DNA from: Promethearchaeota archaeon
Lineage (GTDB): Archaea > Asgardarchaeota > Lokiarchaeia > Sigyniarchaeales > SOKP01
Length of the DNA stretch: 58,180 bases
NCBI GenBank assembly: GCA_011364925.1
Contig: RDOA01000019.1
Location: 1-58,180, forward strand
Direction of reading: 5' to 3'
Shown in pieces: positions 547 through 56,905 of the stretch (the first letter of the stretch is position 1; each line of letters starts with the position of its first letter). Position numbers and translations under genes: made by a program. The notes under the pieces were generated by a model that was given only the letters and a program-made list of their open reading frames with translations, did no database searches and had not been told where the DNA came from.

Positions 547-1278
547 TTAAACAAAATCTTTTAAATTCTTCTGCGTAGAGGGCGTGTTATCGAATTTGTC
601 GAAGGAATATCCTGAGATGTCAGTAATAACTTGCTTAATTTCTTCTATAATCTCTTCCAAAGATAAATGATCTGTATCAATTGTGAATATTTTTTTTGTT
701 TGATTGGCTGAAAAAAGAAATTGGTTGTAAAAATGAAGGATTTCTAACAAATATTTTTTATCATCTTCGTTCCATTCTTTTCTTAGCTTTTCAATTGATC
801 CTCTCTGCACAATTCTTTTTAGTATCGTATCTGGCTGAGCTGTGAGATATATGATGTAATCTTCCTTCCACTTTACCGATTTATACATATCTAGAATAAG
901 ATTATAGTCTTTTTCTTTAAGATAAAGGCTTTTTGAATATACTAAGACGCAAAAAGGCGTTCTATCCAGGATAATAACTCTACCATTATATCGATTATCA
1001 AAGTTTGTAACATTTTGATTTCTATGTATTAATTGTTGAAGAAAGTGAATTTCGCTCCGAAAGGCAATTTGTTTATTTTCAGATCCAAAAGGAAAGGGAG
1101 GAATTTTTATGTAACGTTCGGGAAAAAACTTAAATTTACTATTATCTCCTAGGAGATTTTTTAAGTAATTAAATACGGTGGTCTTTCCAACTCCATGTGC
1201 TCCAGCTATAGATATAATAATGTTGTCTTTACTTCCCTTATTGGTATAATAGGTTCTACTCAATATCTCTTTCTCCAC
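547..1278 (-). CDS. Deoxynucleoside/thymidylate kinase family P-loop kinase
   Basis: Walker A GAHGVGKTT, downstream FPER, ILDRT motif, IYL.A....I..RI..RG lid. Confidence 0.75.
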   Translation of the reverse strand: MEKEILSRTYYTNKGSKDNIIISIAGAHGVGKTTVFNYLKNLLGDNSKFKFFPERYIKIPPFPFGSENKQIAFRSEIHFLQQLIHRNQNVTNFDNRYNGRVIILDRTPFCVLVYSKSLYLKEKDYNLILDMYKSVKWKEDYIIYLTAQPDTILKRIVQRGSIEKLRKEWNEDDKKYLLEILHFYNQFLFSANQTKKIFTIDTDHLSLEEIIEEIKQVITDISGYSFDKFDNTPSTQKNLKDFV

Positions 1279-1397
1279 GCCGATTAAACTGTATCGTATT
1301 TAAAAGAACTTATGTAGTTAATTATAACACTAGAGATATTTGATTTTTCTTACTATTAAATTTATATATTAAAGGACAATGAGAACTACTCTAGAAA

Positions 1398-2510
1398 TTA
1401 GAAGTATACAAATAAAATTACTGAAACTATTGTATAAGCCATATTGGCGATAATAGTGGTGAGCAAGTTCTTATTAATTTCATAAACGATCCCTAAGAAT
1501 ATAAAGATCATCAAATTAGGGATAAAGAAATAAATTCCGATAGGTAATGTGAAAAAGAGGAAAAGAGCCGAGTAAACAAGAGCAACAATTAAGATAACAG
1601 CCACTCTACCAAGGAAATTATCCTCAAAATGTGCTTTTAGAGCGTTATGTAATACACCCCTGAAAGCGATCTCGATTGAAATAACTGAAAGACACATTAC
1701 TGTTATCAGTAATATTATAAAAATTAAATTTGTATTTTGAAGAATTAAGTATTGCTCTGCTTGGTTATTAAAAACATCGTTAAAATTGATTCCAGAATTG
1801 ACCATGAACTTAATTATTATTGACCAGAAATTATCGATTAGGATCAATCCAACGCTCCCAATTGCTCCAATAATTAAAGCAAGAATAATATATCTTTTAC
1901 TCGTCATTAAACCTAATTTTTGGAATTTGTGTTTTTTTGATATAATGTAATATAGGGGGTACACTCCAAAAATAATTTCAGTGATTTGATTTAAGAGAAT
2001 AAATGTGAAATCTGTTAATCCCAATTGTAATGTGAAAAGCATAGATACAACTAATTGAATCGTAACGAACGCAATTAAAGAATTAGCAAAAACACTTATA
2101 CCCTCTCTTAAATTCCATTTATTACGTTGTAGAACAAACCTTTGCTCGGGGACCAACTTTTTGTCTGTAAATATATATCCAGTTTTTCCTGAAGTCTTAT
2201 TATCTTGAACAACCGTTTTTTGTTCTGGTAATTTTTCTAATTTCGTATCACAGATAGGACATTGCTCTAAAACAGAAGAAGTAATTATTGATCCACATCC
2301 TGGACATTTACGGGATAAAACTTCTTTTTTTTTTAATACTGGTGTAATTTCTTGCTTTCCAGAGGTAGGTACGCCCGGTTTTATTTTTATGATAAGTTTC
2401 CCACATTTGGGATTAGGGCAATATACCATGTTTTCTTTAATAGTAGTACCACAATACACGCAAAATTTAGCTACTGACTGTTCTTCATCATCTTTTGACA
2501 TTATTCTCAA
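1398..2510 (-). CDS. Double zinc-ribbon + CPBP/Abi (CAAX protease II-like) membrane protein with degenerate catalytic motifs
   Basis: N-terminal CxxC pairs (CVYC, CPNPKC, CPGC, CPIC) followed by a multi-TM region containing LGL and IEIAFRG; the His motifs are missing. Confidence 0.65.
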   Translation of the reverse strand: MRIMSKDDEEQSVAKFCVYCGTTIKENMVYCPNPKCGKLIIKIKPGVPTSGKQEITPVLKKKEVLSRKCPGCGSIITSSVLEQCPICDTKLEKLPEQKTVVQDNKTSGKTGYIFTDKKLVPEQRFVLQRNKWNLREGISVFANSLIAFVTIQLVVSMLFTLQLGLTDFTFILLNQITEIIFGVYPLYYIISKKHKFQKLGLMTSKRYIILALIIGAIGSVGLILIDNFWSIIIKFMVNSGINFNDVFNNQAEQYLILQNTNLIFIILLITVMCLSVISIEIAFRGVLHNALKAHFEDNFLGRVAVILIVALVYSALFLFFTLPIGIYFFIPNLMIFIFLGIVYEINKNLLTTIIANMAYTIVSVILFVYF

Positions 2511-2661
2511 TAAAAAAGAAATTGTAGTCTGCTGAGCTGTACTTAGTTAATTATATAAAATGAGAAATTAAATATTTTATTGTTATTTTATACAAACAAA
2601 AAGATATAATAACATTTGATGGACTATAGCGCAAGAAATTCGCGAACTTATTATTGTATTT

Positions 2662-3924
2662 TTACTGGGAACCTTCTTTTATATGTTTTTTAAATTTTTT
2701 CGTTCTTGAATAGAGTTCCATTAATAATAAATTATGATAAAAAGAAATTGAATCAAAATATCCTTCTCCTAGATCAGATTTGTTCGCAAGTACTAAAGCA
2801 AGTTGAGCGTTTAATGCAGATTTCATAAGCAATTCAACGCCTTTGTAAATTAGATTCGGACTCCATGTTCCACGGTCAGGATTAGCCCACCAGGTAGTAT
2901 CAGAACATATACCTCTATCGTAAAACCATCTGGCAGTCTCAGTATACCTTTTTACTTCCCATTCATCATTTAATTCCAGATTTTCGACTAAATTCATTAA
3001 ATTGTTCAAACTCCGCATAATTTTCCAAAAGAGTGAATGAACGCGATTATCAGGATGATCCCATAAGGGATATGGAATATTTAAATTCATATCATCATAG
3101 GTGGTACTCCAACTAGATTCTTTTGGGATTATTTTTTCGTTATGAGTAGGAAAATATTTCTCTAGATTAGAGATAAACTCTATTTCTATTTCCTTTTCGT
3201 TGTTAATAAGTTCAAAAGATTTACTTAAGAAAGTTCTCTCAAACTTCTTTATATGATGACCAAATGTTTCTGCATCCATTGCTGTAATGCTGTATTTATT
3301 CTTTTCTTTTGTTTCTTGTTTAAAAGTAACTCCTAAATGTGCTACAAATTCTTTTGCGGTAATATCATTAAAGGCAATCTTGTTACTCAATATATCGTCT
3401 CTAAAGAATAGCATTAAACCATTGGGGGAAGTATAGATTTGATCGTAAACCCACTCGCTAGGGCAAGCTATACCACTCATGATTACCCATTTATACCCTT
3501 TTGAACGAATAAATTTTGCAACTTGAGAACTGATTGATAATTCAGGAGGAAAGAATCCAGTTCTTTTCCATTGTTGAAATTCTTGCCTAAGAATTTCTTC
3601 ATTCATTTCAATCTGGCGTTCTGCTTCTTTTTGTGGAATAAGGGGAAGGATAGGATGAAATTTTGCGGTCCCAACAATCTCAATTTTGTTATTCTGTTCA
3701 AGATTTTTCAATAACTCAATTGTGTCGCTTAAATTAAATTCTCTAAGCATTTCTATTAAGACAGCATTAATATTTAGACTAATTTTAACATTATCATGTT
3801 CCTCTAGCATCCTAAATAGAGGTTTATAACATTCTTTATCTATTTGCTTTAGTACCTCACTATTTTGAAAACTAGGTTGATACATGTGTAATAAGGGGGT
3901 CCAGTATATCATGTTAATATTCAC
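2662..3924 (-). CDS. Glycoside hydrolase family 57 (alpha-amylase/amylopullulanase-like)
   Basis: GH57 conserved regions HMYQP, HPILPL, FPPEL (nucleophile Glu) and MDAETFGHH (acid/base Asp). Confidence 0.88.
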   Translation of the reverse strand: MNINMIYWTPLLHMYQPSFQNSEVLKQIDKECYKPLFRMLEEHDNVKISLNINAVLIEMLREFNLSDTIELLKNLEQNNKIEIVGTAKFHPILPLIPQKEAERQIEMNEEILRQEFQQWKRTGFFPPELSISSQVAKFIRSKGYKWVIMSGIACPSEWVYDQIYTSPNGLMLFFRDDILSNKIAFNDITAKEFVAHLGVTFKQETKEKNKYSITAMDAETFGHHIKKFERTFLSKSFELINNEKEIEIEFISNLEKYFPTHNEKIIPKESSWSTTYDDMNLNIPYPLWDHPDNRVHSLFWKIMRSLNNLMNLVENLELNDEWEVKRYTETARWFYDRGICSDTTWWANPDRGTWSPNLIYKGVELLMKSALNAQLALVLANKSDLGEGYFDSISFYHNLLLMELYSRTKKFKKHIKEGSQ

Positions 3925-3973
3925 TCATTAATGATTTTATTATAATCATCAATTCCAAATTTATAACCTTTAG

Positions 3974-5524
3974 TTAATTTGTTTTAATTTGTTTCATCGC
4001 TTTCTGGCGCGAAATACAAGATGAACAATTACCACATGGTTCGTCATAATCCGCATAACAACTCCAAGTAACATCAATAGGGACATTCAATTCGTAAGCT
4101 AATTTCAATACTTCTTCTTTTGTCTTGTTAGAGAAAGGTATTAAAATCTCAATATTGCGTAAATCTTTATCATGTTTTGAAATTTTTATTAAATTTTCGA
4201 GATTTTGAAAGAAATTTTCTCCTACATCAGAAAATTTTTTTATATCCTCGTGAATGTGGCCCCCTATGATTTTATTACAGCCATACATCTCAGCAAAATA
4301 AGCTCCGACCGAGTAAAAAATTAAGTTTTTGAGGGGTATAAATCCTTCTGGAGCATTTTCAGCGGAGGGAATGGGGAAGCCCTCCATTCTTAAATCTACA
4401 GCGCCCATGATGTAGGACATTGGAACCTCTACCAAAGAAACTTTTGCTAATTCGGCTAGTTTTCTACTGGCTTTTATCTCTTTTTTAGGTCTCCATTTAT
4501 AATTTATAGATAATGCAGTGACCTCGTAACCATTATTTAAAGCCCAAAAAAGGGTCGTTGCTGAGTCTATACCGCCAGACAACATGACAATGACTCTATT
4601 ACTTGGATTCTTAATGGGAGAGCTCATTTTTATTCTTACAGCGTTGTTTATCGCTTCTTCTATCGGGGATATTCTAAAACCTAATGCTTTAGACGCAATT
4701 TTACCGTCGGCAATTATATCGCATTTCATTACATCAACCATTTCTGTACATATCCCAAACTTCGAGGAAGCTGACTCGTATGGAACATACTCATATTTTG
4801 GTGGAGGAATATTCAATCCAATATCCTTGATAGCATTTGTTACTTTTCGAACCAAATCTTTCATATTTAATGTCTCCAAACCGACTAAGTTATAGATTAC
4901 ATTGTCTTTTCCCTTCCCTAACGAAGCGTTCAAGAAAGCTGTCACCGCATCCATAACATAAATCGGCTGCATTGGAACTTCACCCGTTCCAGCAATATAT
5001 ACTTTCCCATCATAGATTTGCTCGATGATATCTGGTATTAACTCGTCATTTGATCCAAGAATATAAGACGGTCGAAAAATTACATAGGAAACATCACTAT
5101 TAATTAAAAGCTGTTCTGCTTTACTTTTTGAATAAAAATAATTATTGTTCGCCCATTCTCTCTCACCGTATTTTTCTACTCCTAGACCAGAAGGATAGAT
5201 AATTCTAGATACTCCCACATTTCTCGCAGCTTCAATGACATTTTTCAATCCTTTTATATTGACCTTTACAAACAGTTCTTTACTTCCGCAGACAATGTTG
5301 GCAAAATGAATAACTGCTTCGCAACCTTGAAATGCGGTCTCTAAATCTTTTACAGTAAAATTTTTAACTAAGAAAACCTCAACATTCTTGCTGGTTACAG
5401 ATTCGACAACTTCGCTCCTACGAACAATTGCATTTATCAATAAGTCTCTTTCTAAGGCTCCCTTGATCGTTTGCATTCCAAGATATCCATTTGCACCCGT
5501 TATTGCGATTTTTTGTTTTAACAT
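3974..5524 (-). CDS. queC: Fusion of an atypical SDR/NAD(P)-binding epimerase-like domain (aa 1-299) and 7-cyano-7-deazaguanine synthase QueC (aa 300-516)
   Basis: N-terminal TGANGYLG Rossmann motif, YFYSK (YxxxK) and RPS. C-terminal PP-loop LSGGIDS, FIPLKN, and Zn motif TWSCY...PCGNCSSC. Confidence 0.85.
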   Translation of the reverse strand: MLKQKIAITGANGYLGMQTIKGALERDLLINAIVRRSEVVESVTSKNVEVFLVKNFTVKDLETAFQGCEAVIHFANIVCGSKELFVKVNIKGLKNVIEAARNVGVSRIIYPSGLGVEKYGEREWANNNYFYSKSKAEQLLINSDVSYVIFRPSYILGSNDELIPDIIEQIYDGKVYIAGTGEVPMQPIYVMDAVTAFLNASLGKGKDNVIYNLVGLETLNMKDLVRKVTNAIKDIGLNIPPPKYEYVPYESASSKFGICTEMVDVMKCDIIADGKIASKALGFRISPIEEAINNAVRIKMSSPIKNPSNRVIVMLSGGIDSATTLFWALNNGYEVTALSINYKWRPKKEIKASRKLAELAKVSLVEVPMSYIMGAVDLRMEGFPIPSAENAPEGFIPLKNLIFYSVGAYFAEMYGCNKIIGGHIHEDIKKFSDVGENFFQNLENLIKISKHDKDLRNIEILIPFSNKTKEEVLKLAYELNVPIDVTWSCYADYDEPCGNCSSCISRQKAMKQIKTN

Positions 5525-5662
5525 TTCTTTGACTATTATTTCTGAAGCGAGTTTATATTTAGAGTCTATAACTTAAAAAAGGATTAAACGATCTAAAGTA
5601 TAAACTTTATGATTTTAAAGATTAAATTATATATATTAGAAAAAGATTGAAATTAGATTTCT

Positions 5663-6127
5663 ATGAGTTATAAAGTTATTGTTAAGGAAACACAAATAAA
5701 GTTTAGTGCTTCCCACTTTTTAAAAGAACCTTCTCAATGCTCAAAACTTCATGGTCATAATTACTATGTATCCGTTGAATTAGAAGCTCCTTTAGACGAG
5801 AATTATATCGTTGTAGATTTTATAGAGTTAAAAGAAAAAGTGAAATCTATAGCGGAACCTTTAGATCATCACGTTTTAATTCCTGAGTTATCTAATGATC
5901 TTACAATTTCAGAAACTTCAGAATCAATTGAAATTATAACTAACTCTAATAAGCGCTATGTTTTTCCCAAAATGGATGTGACACTATTACTTTTACCAGC
6001 AACCACTAGTGAGCTTCTAGCTAAATTTTTTCACGATAAATTAAAGGAGATATATCCACATAAGAGAATTACAGTAAAACTAGGAGAAACAAAAAGTTCT
6101 ATTGCCGTTTATCGAGGTGAAATGTAA
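5663..6127 (+). CDS. queD: 6-carboxy-5,6,7,8-tetrahydropterin synthase (QueD/PTPS family)
   Basis: FSASH, CSKLHGHNY, VVDF, LDH and TTSELLA motifs; divergent from queC. Confidence 0.88.
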   Translation: MSYKVIVKETQIKFSASHFLKEPSQCSKLHGHNYYVSVELEAPLDENYIVVDFIELKEKVKSIAEPLDHHVLIPELSNDLTISETSESIEIITNSNKRYVFPKMDVTLLLLPATTSELLAKFFHDKLKEIYPHKRITVKLGETKSSIAVYRGEM

Positions 6128-6136
6128 TAATCAGGT

Positions 6137-7240
6137 CTATTTTTCAATGATGGTCTCTTTAATTTTTGTACCGAAATGAGTTGCACCGGGACCGAGATAA
6201 ACAAGAACTTCATCCCCGATCTTTACGTCGACAATAGAAATTGGAACACCCTCAGAACTAACTAATCGAATCGTTTCTGCGTTTTGTCCAATATAATTGA
6301 TTTTCGTCTTTCCGACTTGATCCTTTATTTCTAATTCCAGCCGTATCATAGGACGCGTTTCTATTTTAACCCTGCCTACTGTAACGATTTTCCCCTCTCC
6401 GTTGGCATTTACCACAAGAACGCGATCTCCCCCCTTTAACTCACTTAGATATTTCGTTTCATACAATTTGTCTTCTTTATCGCTTGGAACTAAAATGTAT
6501 GCTGATACATCCCCTGCGTTTACTCTAAATGGTCTTGAGGAAACAAACTGAGTTTCGAAAACCTCCGCATGCACTAAAGTAAAACCTTTCGCAGTGCTAC
6601 CAACAAGCATTCCTTCTCCAGGTTTTAAAAGCGAAGTAGTATCAACACACACTCGCTCACTTTCAGGGATATTCTGAACATTGATGACTTTTGCTTTAGT
6701 TAATTCAATATTGTAGCCATTTACTATTAATTTTTTCAGTTCTAATATCTCATCTACATTGTGTGGTGTAATTAAGATTCCATCCGTACCAATTTCGAGA
6801 GTCTTTAGCATTAATTCTGCTTCTGTTAGGTTCTCAACTGAAGCTATCAGTTCTGTATCGCTAGTCTGCAATTGAGCGATAAGGTTTTCAAAAGGTATTA
6901 TCTTCCAATCGCTAGCTGATACTATAATAAAATCAATTTCATTAAATTTTGCTAACTCCATAACTTTTTGTTCGTCTGCCTTAACTTTCAACTCTAATTG
7001 AATCCCTCTGTTAACTTCTAATTTCTTACTGCTTTTAAGATGTTCAAGGTTGTCAAATACTAAGTTTTTAACGGGTAAAACTGTATCTCTGCTAAAAGTA
7101 GTAACACGTTCAATTTGGTTCAATTCTGAATAAGTCTCTTTAGAAACCATGAAATTAAGAAGATTCATGTTGAAAGCTTCCTGCATTAAAGCCTTAAAAT
7201 TATCCGTTTTTCTCTCGAAATTTAAAATTATCTTCTTCAT
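6137..7240 (-). CDS. aroB': 3-dehydroquinate synthase II (archaeal AroB')
   Basis: DWKIIPFENLIA, RVCVDT, RPFRVNAG, GRVKIETRP, QNAETIRL and HFG.KI.E.I.EK signatures. Confidence 0.93.
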   Translation of the reverse strand: MKKIILNFERKTDNFKALMQEAFNMNLLNFMVSKETYSELNQIERVTTFSRDTVLPVKNLVFDNLEHLKSSKKLEVNRGIQLELKVKADEQKVMELAKFNEIDFIIVSASDWKIIPFENLIAQLQTSDTELIASVENLTEAELMLKTLEIGTDGILITPHNVDEILELKKLIVNGYNIELTKAKVINVQNIPESERVCVDTTSLLKPGEGMLVGSTAKGFTLVHAEVFETQFVSSRPFRVNAGDVSAYILVPSDKEDKLYETKYLSELKGGDRVLVVNANGEGKIVTVGRVKIETRPMIRLELEIKDQVGKTKINYIGQNAETIRLVSSEGVPISIVDVKIGDEVLVYLGPGATHFGTKIKETIIEK

Positions 7241-7379
7241 TTAATTATCATCAAAGTTTGGACTATGAAAGCTTTATTGACATGAATTTTTTTACTATAT
7301 TAAATTCTATCAAATTTTTAAGTAAATAAAATCATAATAATTATAAAAGAGACACTATAAATTTTCGAGTGATTAGAAA

Positions 7380-8039
7380 GTGTGTGCTAAACTAAAAGGG
7401 AAACTTTTTCCCAGAAAAAGCAAAGAAAAAGAAGAGCTCGTGATTAAAGCTAAAGCTCACATAAGAAAAATAGCATTAGCAAATAAAACTTATAACAAAA
7501 GAGCAGAGATAGCAAGAAAGAACGCAAAAATAGCGTTAAAGAGAGGGGAAAGAAATAGAGCTAAAAACTATCTTATTCAACATAAACAATATCAGATGAA
7601 GGTGGATCGCGCAAACAATATTCGAGCCAAGATTGAACGCCAGATCGAAGCGATTGAGGAAGGACAGATGATTTCTATGACTGGAGACTTAATGGGAGGG
7701 ATTAGAGACGAGTTAAAAACTATTGCCGGTAGCGCAGCGCCTGAAAAAGTAGCAGAGATTGCGGAAGATTCTGAACAATATGTGTCAGAGATTGAAGAGT
7801 CAGCTGAAATCCTTGCCGGAGATCCCGAAATTGACCTAGCAATTGATGTTACTGACGAACTCAACCAACTTGAGACGGAGATGCTTTTAGAACAAGGTGG
7901 GCAAATGCCAGAAGTACCAGATGAAGAGCTTTCATATATTTCAGAATTCGATGAGATAGAAGAAGAACCCGAAATACGGACTAAAGCTAAGCTAGAAGAC
8001 GAAATAGACAAATTAAGAAAAGAGTTAGAAGGAAGCTAA
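7380..8039 (+). CDS. ESCRT-III subunit, Snf7 family (Vps20/Vps32/Vps60-like)
   Basis: Basic N-terminal helical hairpin (AKIALKRGERNRAKNYL..K.Y), acidic C-terminal half with EKVAEI and DELNQLE, MIM2-like MPEVP, and terminal amphipathic helix EDEIDKLRKEL. GTG start. Confidence 0.82.
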   Translation: MCAKLKGKLFPRKSKEKEELVIKAKAHIRKIALANKTYNKRAEIARKNAKIALKRGERNRAKNYLIQHKQYQMKVDRANNIRAKIERQIEAIEEGQMISMTGDLMGGIRDELKTIAGSAAPEKVAEIAEDSEQYVSEIEESAEILAGDPEIDLAIDVTDELNQLETEMLLEQGGQMPEVPDEELSYISEFDEIEEEPEIRTKAKLEDEIDKLRKELEGS

Positions 8040-8054
8040 AAAATTATAGCTTTA

Positions 8055-10151
8055 TTAAGTATAATATCTTTTTCTATCAAGCTCATTAGCTGAACCTCTT
8101 AAAAATTCTTCATCTTCTAAATCGGAATTTAGTGCTTCAATATTTTTTTCAATTATATATATTTCTTTTTGCAGGTTCTTAAAGTTCTTAAAATAATCGA
8201 TTTCAGAAATATCTCCAGATTCAAATTTGGAGTCTAAAGCTTTTAAAGTTTCTTCAAGGCTATATTTCTCTTTTTCTAAGTTAAACATCTTTTTTTCTCT
8301 TGATTTATCGTACTTCTTCGAATTGAAGCTAGAGTTTTCATTTGAATGATAAGGATCAGAATTACGATTAAATAAATCTGAGAGATGGTTTCGGGAGTAT
8401 TCTTGATATTTGGGGATTTTTCTAGAGTTTCCATTAGGACTATAATCAGCTGGATTGTTAAGAAAATCATTAAAGTTATTTAGTCCGTTTCTAGAAGGGA
8501 AGGATTGCTCGTATCTTTGTAGCTGTTCTAACTTTCTCATCAGTAAGTTTTTTTGATCTAAGTCAGAAAGGTCATTACCAAACCCTCTGCCGTATTGTTT
8601 AGGCTCATAGTTTTGTATTCTGTTAGTGTCGTAGAAGTTTTGTAAGAAAAACTCATTTTGATTATAGTTGGGAGGTAAATACTTACGCATTGCGTGCCCA
8701 AAGTAATTTAAGTCCTCGGGAGTTTGTATTTGGCTCATCCTCTGATTAGGAGGCTTAAGATTATTTTGATAAAGCATTTGATTATCGGGCATGTTTTGGT
8801 AGAGCCCATATGGATTCTTGTTGTTGTAGGGATTAATAACTTGGTTCTGAGGGAAATAAGGACCCTTATTCGATATTATATTAGGGTTTTGATTAAACAA
8901 AGTTGACGCTATGTTATATTCAGACATTTTTTTGTTTGAATTGACATTATTGTATTGACACTTCAAACTAAAGAACGAATTTATTGCTTCTTCAATATAG
9001 TTGGAAATATCACCTAAGTCAACTTCGATATTATATAACTTTTTAGCCGCTAACTTGTCGTAAATAACAGTTTCATCAAAGCATCGAGCAAGTAAGAGAT
9101 AGTCTAACACCCTTGAAATAGAATTTGGGGGAAGCGTAAATTCATATCTCCCATAAGGAAATTCAATATAGAGTTTCTTGAATATTTTCCCTCTTATTTG
9201 AACTTTAGTTAAATCCTTTACAGGAGCTTTAAATATACCGTCTTTTTTCCTCCTTCGCTTTCCATGTTCACGAACAAAAGATAAATCGAAATTGGTTATA
9301 AAGAGGATGCCTTTATTCTTCTTGTATTTATCCTCCGTATTAAGTCCGTTAGCCAATTTAGCGTATATTGCGTAAACTGGCTTTTCCTCCTCTGCCAAGT
9401 TGAGGAATTTAATATAATTCTTGAAGTAAAAAGTGATTTTATCGATGAACACTAAATTTTTTGAAATATTTACAATACTAGTGTTTATGGTATTCACATT
9501 ATTCTTAATAAAATCAATTATTGAAGTATAGCTTCGATTTAGATTTTCAAGTATGTCTTCAATGATTCGAATATTAGAATTCTGTTGCATGTAGATATCG
9601 AAAAAATATTCTTTATTAATTGATAAATGCTGGATAAAATTGCGAATCTTCTCTATCAGATTTTCTTTTGCGTATATAAACAGTTTAAAGAGCGCTAGTA
9701 AATCCAATTCCATAGTAGGATAATGATAACATTTAACGGGTGGAGCTCTTGCATCTAGGATTTTATTTTTTAATGAGTAAAGTGAATTTAATAGATCTCT
9801 AAGTGGATCTATAAACGAACGAGAATTTTTAATTAGTTCCATGAAATTTTTTTCAAGATCTTCTTTCTTTTCATAGATATTTATTATTTGATGAGAATGA
9901 CACTTTGGGCAAGACTTTAAGAGTTGGTTGGTTCTAACTATATTATCCGTTCCACAGTCTTTACAAGTTTTTTTATTGCCTGATTCAGGAACGATGATAT
10001 TTTTTGAATTACATTCTTGACATATATAAGTATCAATTTTTTCCTCATGCAAACAATCGGAACAACAACTAACACCACAATCTTCACAATAATAAGCTAA
10101 CTTTACATTTCTTTGACAGAAACGGCAGATTTGGAATTGTTGCTCCAACAT
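8055..10151 (-). CDS. Multidomain protein: B-box-like/zinc-ribbon cluster, coiled coil, PH/GRAM-like domain, N/Q/P/Y-rich linker and C-terminal steadiness-box (Vps23/TSG101-like) helices
   Basis: CRFC..YCEDC..CCSDC.H plus three more CxxC pairs; KGILFITNFDLSF (PH/GRAM pattern); C-terminal EKYSLEETLKALDSKFESGDISEIDYFKNFKNLQKEIYII. Confidence 0.65.
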   Translation of the reverse strand: MLEQQFQICRFCQRNVKLAYYCEDCGVSCCSDCLHEEKIDTYICQECNSKNIIVPESGNKKTCKDCGTDNIVRTNQLLKSCPKCHSHQIINIYEKKEDLEKNFMELIKNSRSFIDPLRDLLNSLYSLKNKILDARAPPVKCYHYPTMELDLLALFKLFIYAKENLIEKIRNFIQHLSINKEYFFDIYMQQNSNIRIIEDILENLNRSYTSIIDFIKNNVNTINTSIVNISKNLVFIDKITFYFKNYIKFLNLAEEEKPVYAIYAKLANGLNTEDKYKKNKGILFITNFDLSFVREHGKRRRKKDGIFKAPVKDLTKVQIRGKIFKKLYIEFPYGRYEFTLPPNSISRVLDYLLLARCFDETVIYDKLAAKKLYNIEVDLGDISNYIEEAINSFFSLKCQYNNVNSNKKMSEYNIASTLFNQNPNIISNKGPYFPQNQVINPYNNKNPYGLYQNMPDNQMLYQNNLKPPNQRMSQIQTPEDLNYFGHAMRKYLPPNYNQNEFFLQNFYDTNRIQNYEPKQYGRGFGNDLSDLDQKNLLMRKLEQLQRYEQSFPSRNGLNNFNDFLNNPADYSPNGNSRKIPKYQEYSRNHLSDLFNRNSDPYHSNENSSFNSKKYDKSREKKMFNLEKEKYSLEETLKALDSKFESGDISEIDYFKNFKNLQKEIYIIEKNIEALNSDLEDEEFLRGSANELDRKRYYT

Positions 10152-55684: not shown

Positions 55685-55792
55685 TTTAAATAACTATATG
55701 TTATATTTTAAACCTATAAGAAATATAAAATTGCGTATCTATTATATATTTAGAGATAGATCAGTAAAATTTCCCAAGCAAAAGGATTTTAT

Positions 55793-56905
55793 ATGAAAGT
55801 TAAAGCGAGATTATATGAAAAACTCGACAAAGATAAGGTTAAATGTCATATTTGTGCTAATGAATGCACCATTCTACCGGGGAAGATTGGAATATGTAGA
55901 ACAAGAAAGAATTTTGACGGAGAATTATTTACTTTAATATATGGTTCTATGATATCCTCAGGCAGCTTGGATCCAATTGAGAAGAAACCACTTTATAACT
56001 TCTGGCCAGGCGCGACAGCTTACTCAATTGCATCAATCGGTTGTTCTTTTAAGTGTCAGAATTGTCAGAACTGGTCTATTAGCCAAGCTAACCCAACGGA
56101 TAATGGAAAAGATGGATATTACGACTTTAAAGGATACGAGGGTCGTAGAATGTCTTTGGTTGAAATGACACCTGAAGAATTAGTAAAAAGAGTCGTTAAA
56201 AGTGGTGCTAAAACATTAGCTTATACGTACAACGAACCACTAATTTGGCACGAATGGATATTGGATACTGCTGAACTGCTTAAAAAAGAGGATATTAAAA
56301 CTATACTAGTGACAAACGGATACTCTACCCTTGAAGCCACGACAGAATTGATAGAAGTAGGAATAGATGCTGCTAATATCGACATTAAATCTATGTCAGA
56401 TGACTTTTATAAGAAAATCTGTGGTGTAAAATCAGTCCAGCCTGTTTTGGATACAGCAAAAAGATTTAAAGCCGGTGGAATTCACGTTGAAATTACTAAT
56501 CTCATTATTCCTGATTTAAATGATAGCGATGCTGAAATTGAGTCGCTTTCTAGTTGGATTTACGAAAATCTTGGAGATGATACTCCACTTCACTTCTCTG
56601 CTTATCATCCAGACTTTAAGCAACCATCTATGAAAAGAACTCCGTTTAAAACATTAGACAACGCCTATAACATCGCCAAAAGAATAGGGTTAAAATATGT
56701 ATATGTTGGGAATATAAATCATGAAAAAGGTGCAAATACTTACTGTCCAAACTGTAATCACTTGATTTTAGGGAGAAGTGGATACCGATTTACGAAAATT
56801 GACATTACAGAGTCAAAACTGTGCCCAAATTGCCAATACGATCTAAAAAACGATATCATAGGGGAAATTGACAAAAATCCCTCTCATAGATTTAGCTTCT
56901 TTTAA
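55793..56905 (+). CDS. amrS: AmmeMemoRadiSam system radical SAM enzyme
   Basis: C..C...C......G.C..R.N, DPIEKKPL, CSFKCQNCQN radical SAM motif, AYTYNEP, PLHFS, YVYVGN, T.CP.C. Confidence 0.9.
   Translation: MKVKARLYEKLDKDKVKCHICANECTILPGKIGICRTRKNFDGELFTLIYGSMISSGSLDPIEKKPLYNFWPGATAYSIASIGCSFKCQNCQNWSISQANPTDNGKDGYYDFKGYEGRRMSLVEMTPEELVKRVVKSGAKTLAYTYNEPLIWHEWILDTAELLKKEDIKTILVTNGYSTLEATTELIEVGIDAANIDIKSMSDDFYKKICGVKSVQPVLDTAKRFKAGGIHVEITNLIIPDLNDSDAEIESLSSWIYENLGDDTPLHFSAYHPDFKQPSMKRTPFKTLDNAYNIAKRIGLKYVYVGNINHEKGANTYCPNCNHLILGRSGYRFTKIDITESKLCPNCQYDLKNDIIGEIDKNPSHRFSFF

Follow-up and report, generated by a model that had tools for sequence, protein, structure and literature searches.

The locus studied here raises the question of what a QueC enzyme fused to a short-chain dehydrogenase/reductase (SDR) does in an archaeon in which we could identify no QueE. 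The locus lies on contig RDOA01000019.1 of a Promethearchaeota archaeon (GenBank assembly GCA_011364925.1), a stretch of 58,180 nucleotides that we analyzed in full (the window). A single open reading frame (ORF) encodes the SDR-QueC fusion, head to head with queD, the gene for 6-carboxytetrahydropterin synthase. A first-pass annotation of the window had taken this arrangement as a possible new branch of 7-deazaguanine or pterin chemistry. We found that a conserved subfamily of SDR-partnered QueC is the sole QueC in archaea that have archaeosine machinery and lack QueE and that it is obligately paired with QueD in Asgard archaea. Lacking QueE, this archaeon probably relies on an undescribed route to make or recycle preQ0 (7-cyano-7-deazaguanine), the precursor of the tRNA base archaeosine. 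More tentatively, with a probability of roughly 0.4, we propose that the SDR-partnered QueC subfamily supplies preQ0 without QueE.

The SDR-QueC fusion is conserved in Asgard archaea

In Pfam, the N terminus of the fusion protein matched NAD_binding_10, Epimerase, and NmrA over amino acids (aa) 3 to 212, and the C terminus matched QueC over aa 311 to 513 (PF06508, 162.5 bits against a cutoff of 22). Together with the intact 516-codon frame, these matches confirm the initial reading of the ORF as an SDR (TGANGYLG, YxxxK) joined to QueC, and the divergent queD was likewise where it had been placed (Table 1). The catalytic Cys and His residues of QueD are intact. Pfam and NCBIfam scans found no glutamine amidotransferase (GATase) domain in the fusion protein, and the Pfam scan found no ANL adenylation domain or carrier domain.

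A search of 5.8 billion proteins returned 241 matches to the fusion at an E value of ≤0.001. The best 120 of these 241 were 493 to 570 aa long and 49 to 91% identical to the query; every one contained both domains, and their source labels were Asgard archaea. Database entries name the homologues simply "7-cyano-7-deazaguanine synthase." When we scanned one genome per GTDB species, about 51 fused loci were recovered in "Promethearchaeota" metagenome-assembled genomes (MAGs), and queD lay beside the Asgard fusion in all 49 loci that were informative (contig long enough). The fusion is thus not peculiar to this assembly, and its conservation is far beyond chance.

An internal methionine at the domain junction (Met300, position 4627) had led the first-pass annotation to caution that the fusion could be a recent stop-codon loss. 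We give almost no credence to this or any other artifact of assembly or annotation, including two genes recently joined by read-through. More than 120 proteins, with identities as low as 49%, share the architecture, as do about 51 species genomes. At the alignment column of Met300, 76 of 121 homologues have Leu and 42 have Met, amid variable linker columns, which marks it as a hydrophobic position in a helix rather than a conserved start. A tree of QueC domains grouped the 20 fused ones tested into a single clade (100/100 support) on a long stem, distinct from stand-alone QueC proteins encoded within this family of archaea. Because the fusion is conserved among homologues and has its own QueC clade, and because the junction Met is mostly Leu, we regard recent stop-codon loss as refuted.

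The source genome encodes archaeosine enzymes and no recognizable QueE

The source genome (3.9 Mb in 112 contigs) has an estimated completeness of 100%. The fusion is its sole PF06508 match and hence its only QueC, and its single QueD is the only gene of the PTPS family. The absence of queE, queF, and arcS from the window, noted at the outset, was confirmed, and a genome-wide inventory placed ArcTGT on contig C34 and ArcS with an adjacent RaSEA on contig C70. The genome also encodes FolE (GTP cyclohydrolase I). It contains no QueF (no PF14489 match), no MptA, and no YhhQ. With ArcS and RaSEA encoded in it, the genome has no need of an alternative archaeosine synthase.

QueE was sought by several means. 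With TIGR03365, the best match in the source genome (contig C48) was an NrdG2 activase, which we rejected as QueE, and TIGR04508 had no match. Three Asgard QueE or QueE-like queries run with phmmer against all six-frame ORFs of the genome scored at most 30 bits, and a profile of the Asgard-type QueE reached only 31.5 bits. The QueE hallmark S-x-QGEG occurs in no six-frame ORF of the genome and in all three control QueEs. The weak QueE-like radical S-adenosylmethionine (SAM) matches that remain have equal counterparts in relatives without any QueC or QueD. One radical-SAM gene lies in the window itself (positions 55760 to 56902, plus strand); its 381-aa product has only a generic Radical_SAM match and scores 24.5 bits against an Asgard QueE-like protein. 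Its paralogue group is also found in genomes without que genes, and this candidate was rejected as well.

Three states of the pathway in one Asgard family

We compared 41 genomes of the same family with a second sample drawn from the phylum; the TIGR03365 screen was applied to the 14 fusion genomes of the phylum sample only. Sister genera within the family, and other Asgard lineages as well, encode QueE, QueD, and QueC in a cluster. The QueE of these clusters is diverged but recognizable, with S-x-QGEG and a Cx11CxxC radical-SAM motif, and we refer to it as the Asgard type. Three states were distinguished in the family. The genomes are MAGs, and related genomes are not independent samples; few evolutionary events may underlie the counts. 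Stand-alone QueC was present in 15 of the 41 genomes, and in 13 of these 15 a QueE-QueD-QueC cluster includes the Asgard-type QueE; the other two genomes are incomplete, and QueD is missing from them too. The fusion was present in 12 genomes of five genera, all 12 with QueD (usually adjacent) and none with the Asgard-type QueE. The remaining state, without QueC, comprised 13 genomes; QueD and QueE are missing from 12 of these as well, and the thirteenth is a genome of 90% completeness. Over the family and phylum samples together, the Asgard-type QueE was found in 0 of 17 fusion genomes. TIGR03365 detected a canonical QueE in 1 of the 14 phylum-sample fusion genomes, in a separate island of queD, queE, a further ORF, and folE. 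This compact island (L021:1017-3112, in the fusion-bearing genome G104 of the same genus as the window) encodes a QueE of the Cx14CxxC type and a 125-aa ORF product and may be a mobile or viral 7-deazaguanine module.

The QueD proteins linked to the fusion are as similar to the QueDs of QueE clusters (196 to 210 bits) as they are to one another. The sole consistent change, seen in all 12 fusion-linked QueDs examined, is a His-to-Pro replacement (HFLKE-H versus HFLKE-P) between the first zinc His and the catalytic Cys, near the active-site loop (window positions 5663 to 6127 compared with L037 and L058 to L063). Judged from the alignment, this replacement suggests coadaptation with the switch of pathway.

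The first step of pterin synthesis was uninformative about the state of the pathway. FolE occurs in 3 of the 41 family genomes (the source genome included), all among the nine without a match to MptA/GCYH-IB, and the other 32 have MptA. This pattern looks like nonorthologous displacement, and as the choice between FolE and MptA is independent of state, we set aside FolE as a dedicated first step. Genomes of all three states retain MptA or FolE, so the synthesis of pterin cofactors is not the reason for keeping QueD. The three-state distribution, the near identity of the QueDs, and this dispensability of QueD for pterin cofactors together indicate that the QueD-plus-fusion cassette stands in for the QueE-QueD-QueC cluster of the sister genera.

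ArcS was found in 39 of the 41 family genomes and is kept by 12 of the 13 that lack QueC. The known preQ0 transporter YhhQ was present in six family genomes, with no relation to pathway state; absent from the source genome and sporadic in the family, it is uninformative as a marker of salvage. The QueC-less genomes must import preQ0 or a relative, yet YhhQ is found in only those 6 of 41. The only other gene repeatedly beside queD encodes DUF166. In two genera it adjoins queD, yet 39 of the 41 genomes have it whatever their state, and we rejected it as a substitute for QueE.

Other Asgard families have a tight cluster of QueE-like, MptA, DUF366, QueD, and QueC genes (L039:4289-7958, L040:6028-9645, L045:3159-6787, and L035:3294-6594). 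DUF366 (PF04017, about 180 bits) lies inside three of these four clusters and is a candidate uncharacterized member of the archaeal preQ0 pathway. The QueC of these clusters is itself diverged, reading YGSKED and FPDN and carrying an insertion within its zinc motif. In two other families, strong matches to the Asgard-type QueE contain one to four in-frame stops (TAG, TAA, and TGA; examples in Table 1) and could be pseudogenes, insertions, or alignments across two frames.

The QueC domain keeps essential residues and alters pocket motifs

The canonical QueC signature comprises SGGxDS, YxQxHxxE, VPxRN, YPDC, and a zinc motif, and residues Y35, R99, Y131 (where Phe is partly tolerated), and Y189 are essential in Escherichia coli QueC (2026 study, PMC13329287). 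The same study mentions neither an SDR-QueC fusion nor Asgard archaea. Counterparts of all four essential residues are retained in the fused family. Across 121 homologues, the invariant positions of the QueC domain are SGGxDS, Y342, R345, E349, N400, F431, D433, and the four zinc cysteines (C489, C497, C500, and C503), and Y490, the Tyr after the first zinc Cys, is nearly invariant. The zinc site is spaced Cx7C, compared with Cx8C in canonical QueC.

Two pocket motifs are not kept. YxQxHxxE reads YKWRPKKE here, with Tyr, Arg, and Glu invariant; its Gln is replaced by W, L, Y, or F and its His by Pro throughout the fused family and likewise in the split forms described below. YPDC reads FSDV, with Phe and Asp invariant, P, S, or N after F431, and A, T, V, or S in place of Cys (F[P/S/N]D[A/T/V/S]). 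VPxRN reads IPLKN. The first-pass annotation had pointed to the resulting PLKN as unusual, and it is indeed present; as a feature of the family it does not hold, since position 399 is Arg in 96 and Lys in only 25 of the 121 homologues. In the alignment, the Lys behaves as a subclade variant. The altered pocket motifs, by comparison, are common to every SDR-partnered QueC, fused or split.

Set against canonical QueC (Bacillus subtilis 3BL5, Pectobacterium atrosepticum 2PG3, and E. coli; PF06508 cluster 1), the fusion is alike in its PP-loop, its four-Cys zinc site, its essential-residue counterparts, and its queD neighbor. It differs in the 300-aa N-terminal SDR, the altered YxQxHxxE and YPDC motifs, the Cx7C spacing, the queE-less genome, and its long-stemmed separate clade, as well as in its match to the NCBIfam equivalog TIGR00364, which at 135.1 bits falls under the cutoff of 150.3.

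The SDR domain is of the extended type

The glycine motif TGANGYLG and residues R35, R36, S112, Y129, and K133 are invariant in the 121 fused homologues. The conserved YxxxK is Y129-K133, the neighboring Y131 and K135 not being conserved. The TGxxGxxG motif, the Ser-Tyr-Lys triad that includes YxxxK, the length of about 300 aa, and the C-terminal substrate domain are those of an extended SDR. An AlphaFold2 (AF2) model built on 32 homologues was confident, with a predicted local distance difference test (pLDDT) score of 87.5 that dips to about 62 in the linker and a predicted TM-score (pTM) of 0.66. Its top Foldseek matches were extended SDRs (target TM-scores of 0.65 to 0.81), the best being Gox2253, the NDUFA9 subunit of complex I, and UDP-sugar 4-epimerases. 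By sequence and structure, the nearest relatives are NSDHL, NDUFA9-like proteins, UDP-sugar epimerases, and cinnamoyl-CoA reductase. The R35-R36 pair after strand 2, shared with the NDUFA9-like protein 9g83_P and cinnamoyl-CoA reductase, is a motif-level hint of an NADP-type domain. Judged by their motifs, both domains look catalytically competent. A complex prediction for QueD and the fusion protein scored 0.00, which gives no verdict and is not evidence either way.

The fusion resembles several known systems in part. Some Crenarchaeota reportedly form archaeosine with the support of a fusion of glutamine amidotransferase to QueC. That protein is also an archaeal QueC joined to a second catalytic domain in an archaeosine context; here, the partner is an NADP-type extended SDR, with no match to GATase. 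SDRs acting on the pterin ring (sepiapterin reductase, PTR1, FolM, and dihydropteridine reductase) provide a precedent for SDR redox chemistry beside the PTPS/QueD family, but they are classical SDRs of about 250 aa, whereas the domain here is extended (about 300 aa). Carboxylic acid reductases combine ANL, carrier, and thioester reductase domains, and of these the fusion has only a weak, partial match to NAD_binding_4 (thioester reductase) over aa 123 to 184. The SDR may cover the same pathway position as QueE, between QueD and the nitrile-forming step. The two have no homology, and with neither Fe-S nor SAM motifs in the SDR, any replacement chemistry would have to be nonradical. QueF is a T-fold, NADPH-dependent preQ0 reductase with a catalytic Cys. 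An SDR doing NADPH-linked chemistry on 7-deazaguanines would be alike in that respect; the fold is unrelated, and the alignment contained no Cys conserved across the fused and split SDRs. Because of this lack of a conserved Cys, and because ArcS and RaSEA require the nitrile, the early suggestion that the SDR reduces preQ0 as QueF does is not favored.

SDR and QueC are also partners as separate proteins

A search with the SDR domain only, against 1.84 billion representative proteins, recovered stand-alone SDRs of about 300 aa with 40 to 43% identity to the fused domain. In 5 of 5 readable metagenomic contexts, a stand-alone QueC directly follows the SDR, with stop and start codons overlapping or nearly abutting. 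Among named genomes, the split pair was found as adjacent genes in Bathyarchaeia. In a Nitrososphaeria MAG, the SDR and QueC genes are 2.6 kb apart, and in an uncultured bacterium their order is reversed (QueC, then SDR). Thus, SDR homologues are linked to que genes in other phyla too, as the first-pass proposal would predict. The split QueCs have the same altered motif signature as the fused ones. Given the split pairs and this shared signature, the SDR-QueC partnership is characteristic of a subfamily rather than the product of one chance fusion.

More distant stand-alone SDR homologues (about 100 bits) adjoin cbiD and cbiG in Nitrosopumilaceae (L141:4800-6852 and L140) and MeaB and methylmalonyl-CoA mutase genes in Marsarchaeota/Thermoprotei (L125:5947-10005 and L128). 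This branch of SDRs may work on corrinoids. As a clue to function, the distant homologues in Nitrosopumilus, Marsarchaeota, and Vicinamibacteria were uninformative, since they are not linked to QueC.

Coordinates and gene neighborhood

Table 1 gives the positions of the features discussed. The fusion and queD are part of a block of genes (window positions 547 to 10151) in the order dNK, CAAX protease-like, GH57, fusion, queD, DHQS-II, Snf7, and a gene for a 698-aa zinc-ribbon protein. This order is kept within the genus and in one genome of another genus (L051 to L053 and L056). Across genera, the sole conserved association around the locus is the pair of queD and the fusion.

TABLE 1 Features of the queD-fusion locus in the window, with features elsewhere marked by contig
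Feature	Position	Strand	Description or basis
SDR-QueC fusion gene, whole	3974..5524	-	516 aa + stop codon; single uninterrupted ORF
Extended SDR domain, aa 1-299	4628..5524	-	Pfam and NCBIfam matches, residue conservation, AF2 model
TGANGYLG (SDR glycine motif), aa 9-16	5477-5500	-	
R35-R36 of SDR domain	5417-5422	-	
S112			SDR domain residue; aligned as invariant
Y129xxxK133 of SDR domain	5126-5140	-	
Short interdomain linker, aa 300-309, includes Met300	4598..4627	-	pLDDT dip, variable columns
QueC domain, aa 310-516	3977..4597	-	PF06508 162.5 bits; aligned to 3BL5 and 2PG3
SGGIDS (PP-loop), aa 316-321	4562-4579	-	
YKWRPKKE, aa 342-349			QueC domain
PLKN within IPLKN, aa 397-400	4325-4336	-	
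FSDV, aa 431-434			QueC domain
Four Zn cysteines of QueC domain (C489, C497, C500, C503)	4016-4060	-	
Divergent intergenic region, fusion gene/queD	5525..5662		138 bp, AT-rich; sequence read; same head-to-head layout in other genomes
queD, 6-carboxytetrahydropterin synthase	5663..6127	+	154 aa; PTPS 85.5 bits
FolE (GTP cyclohydrolase I) of source genome	C19:30245-30823		
Stop-containing Asgard-type QueE, example	G038:C1:2125089-2125967		
Stop-containing Asgard-type QueE, example	G047:C22:4121-5002		
Stop-containing Asgard-type QueE, example	G006:C1:919375-920163		

A proposed route and its alternatives

We propose that the two-gene cassette of QueD and the divergent fusion would supply preQ0 to ArcTGT, ArcS, and RaSEA for archaeosine. 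On this view, the fusion is a true two-domain enzyme from a separate QueC subfamily in which an SDR partner is constant, joined to QueC in one Asgard family and encoded next to it in Bathyarchaeia and a few further lineages. The QueC domain would still perform the ATP-dependent conversion of a carboxylate through the amide to the nitrile, and the SDR domain may carry out an NADP(H)-linked redox step on a pterin or deazapurine carboxylate, a noncanonical step that would make QueE dispensable. Comparisons of gene content in Asgard archaea favor use of the QueD product, and, speculatively, 6-carboxypterin at some redox level could reconcile the Asgard data with those from Bathyarchaeia. A more specific version, in which the SDR and the diverged QueC form a QueE-independent, nonradical route to the 7-deazaguanine ring, is somewhat doubtful. 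Its substrate would be 6-carboxytetrahydropterin (CPH4) from QueD in Asgard archaea and, in Bathyarchaeia, pterin-6-carboxylate obtained by salvage or in some other way. ATP would activate the carboxylate, and the pterin ring would cycle with bound NADP(H) through a state that is either dihydro or quinonoid; opening at C4a-N5, closure at C6-C4a, and loss of ammonia might then give preQ0 directly, which is pure chemical speculation.

Several points weigh against a supply of preQ0 without QueE by this subfamily. We know of no chemistry by which an SDR replaces the radical ring contraction of QueE, the source genome has many uncharacterized radical-SAM genes, and all of the evidence for a QueE-less route is comparative. 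The split form in Bathyarchaeia tempers the simple idea that the SDR replaces QueE: all three Bathyarchaeia genomes with the pair have ArcTGT and neither QueD nor QueE, and in two of the three the SDR-linked QueC is the only QueC. Major facilitator superfamily (MFS) transporters adjoin the pair in two contexts (L065 and L111), and in the bacterium with the QueC-SDR pair, QueD and QueE are encoded at other sites in the genome. With the pair present in Bathyarchaeia that lack QueD, the unit has no strict need for the QueD product, which favors a substrate that is salvaged or made in another way there. Within the Asgard family, moreover, genomes without QueC, QueD, and QueE keep ArcS, and salvage of preQ0 is therefore common there. 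These observations on transporters, Bathyarchaeia, and the 13 of 41 QueC-less genomes living on salvaged preQ0 speak for an alternative in which the SDR-partnered QueC turns an imported or recycled compound into preQ0, with the SDR adjusting its redox state. The substrate could be oxidized pterin-6-carboxylate, preQ1, the 7-formyl derivative, or 7-carboxy- or 7-amido-7-deazaguanine (CDG or ADG) from degraded tRNA or phage DNA, and the Asgard link to queD would reflect either an additional feed-in or a coupling in regulation. The presence of queD at every informative Asgard locus and its loss where QueC is lost are hard to explain if QueD is idle, however, and salvage of CDG or ADG would need no SDR. 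No transporter is conserved beside the Asgard fusion, and YhhQ has the patchy distribution noted above. We therefore consider salvage or recycling somewhat unlikely.

The fused protein could also be an ordinary QueC with an accessory SDR, supplied with CDG by an unrecognized, nonorthologous replacement of QueE encoded elsewhere in the genome. The SDR would be structural or regulatory (an NADPH sensor like NmrA or NDUFA9) or have an unrelated job. The retention of the essential QueC residues agrees with this, as do the many uncharacterized radical-SAM proteins and the structural relationship of the SDR to NDUFA9, a noncatalytic NADPH-binding protein with which it shares a VRR motif. We nevertheless judge it unlikely, as the invariant Ser-Tyr-Lys triad argues for catalysis, the pocket motifs are altered in every SDR-partnered QueC, the weak QueE-like matches are equaled in relatives without QueC and QueD, and DUF166 is present irrespective of state. 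Finally, the cassette might make a different product: the PP-loop would adenylate the carboxylate of CPH4 or CDG, and the SDR would use NADPH to reduce the activated acid, as carboxylic acid reductases do, yielding 6-formyl or 6-hydroxymethyl pterin or 7-formyl-7-deazaguanine, with preQ0 then being salvaged. Such a reaction would open a new branch of pterin or deazapurine metabolism. The similarity of the SDR to cinnamoyl-CoA reductase, its weak match to NAD_binding_4, the altered YxQxHxxE and YPDC motifs, and the TIGR00364 score under the equivalog cutoff are in keeping with such a reaction. We think it distinctly improbable. The cassette replaces QueE-QueD-QueC beside the same QueD and is lost with QueD in salvage genomes, which argues for the same end product; MptA or FolE persists without the cassette, so pterin cofactors are independent of it; and the protein has no carrier domain and no Cys conserved across the fused and split SDRs.

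Significance

We found no description of an SDR-QueC fusion protein in the literature on QueC that concerns Asgard archaea, fusions, SDRs, or salvage. The fusion is real, linked to queD, intact in its motifs, and undescribed in the literature searched, which makes it plausible that 7-deazaguanine or pterin chemistry has a new branch here. New here are the three-state distribution within one family, the near universality of ArcS in it, and the split form in Bathyarchaeia that lack QueD and QueE. To our knowledge, every characterized 7-deazapurine pathway (queuosine, archaeosine, deazaguanine DNA modifications, and toyocamycin-type antibiotics) depends on the contraction of the CPH4 ring by the radical-SAM enzyme QueE. 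A widespread group of sediment archaea keeps the enzymes before and after QueE without QueE itself and has, at that position, a conserved reductase and a diverged QueC. Either outcome corrects the database name "7-cyano-7-deazaguanine synthase" for several hundred proteins. If the module makes preQ0 without QueE, it would represent new enzymology for building 7-deazapurines. If it is instead a salvage enzyme, it would reveal a new exchanged micronutrient in communities of Asgard archaea and Bathyarchaeia and would explain tRNA modification in archaea that lack QueE.

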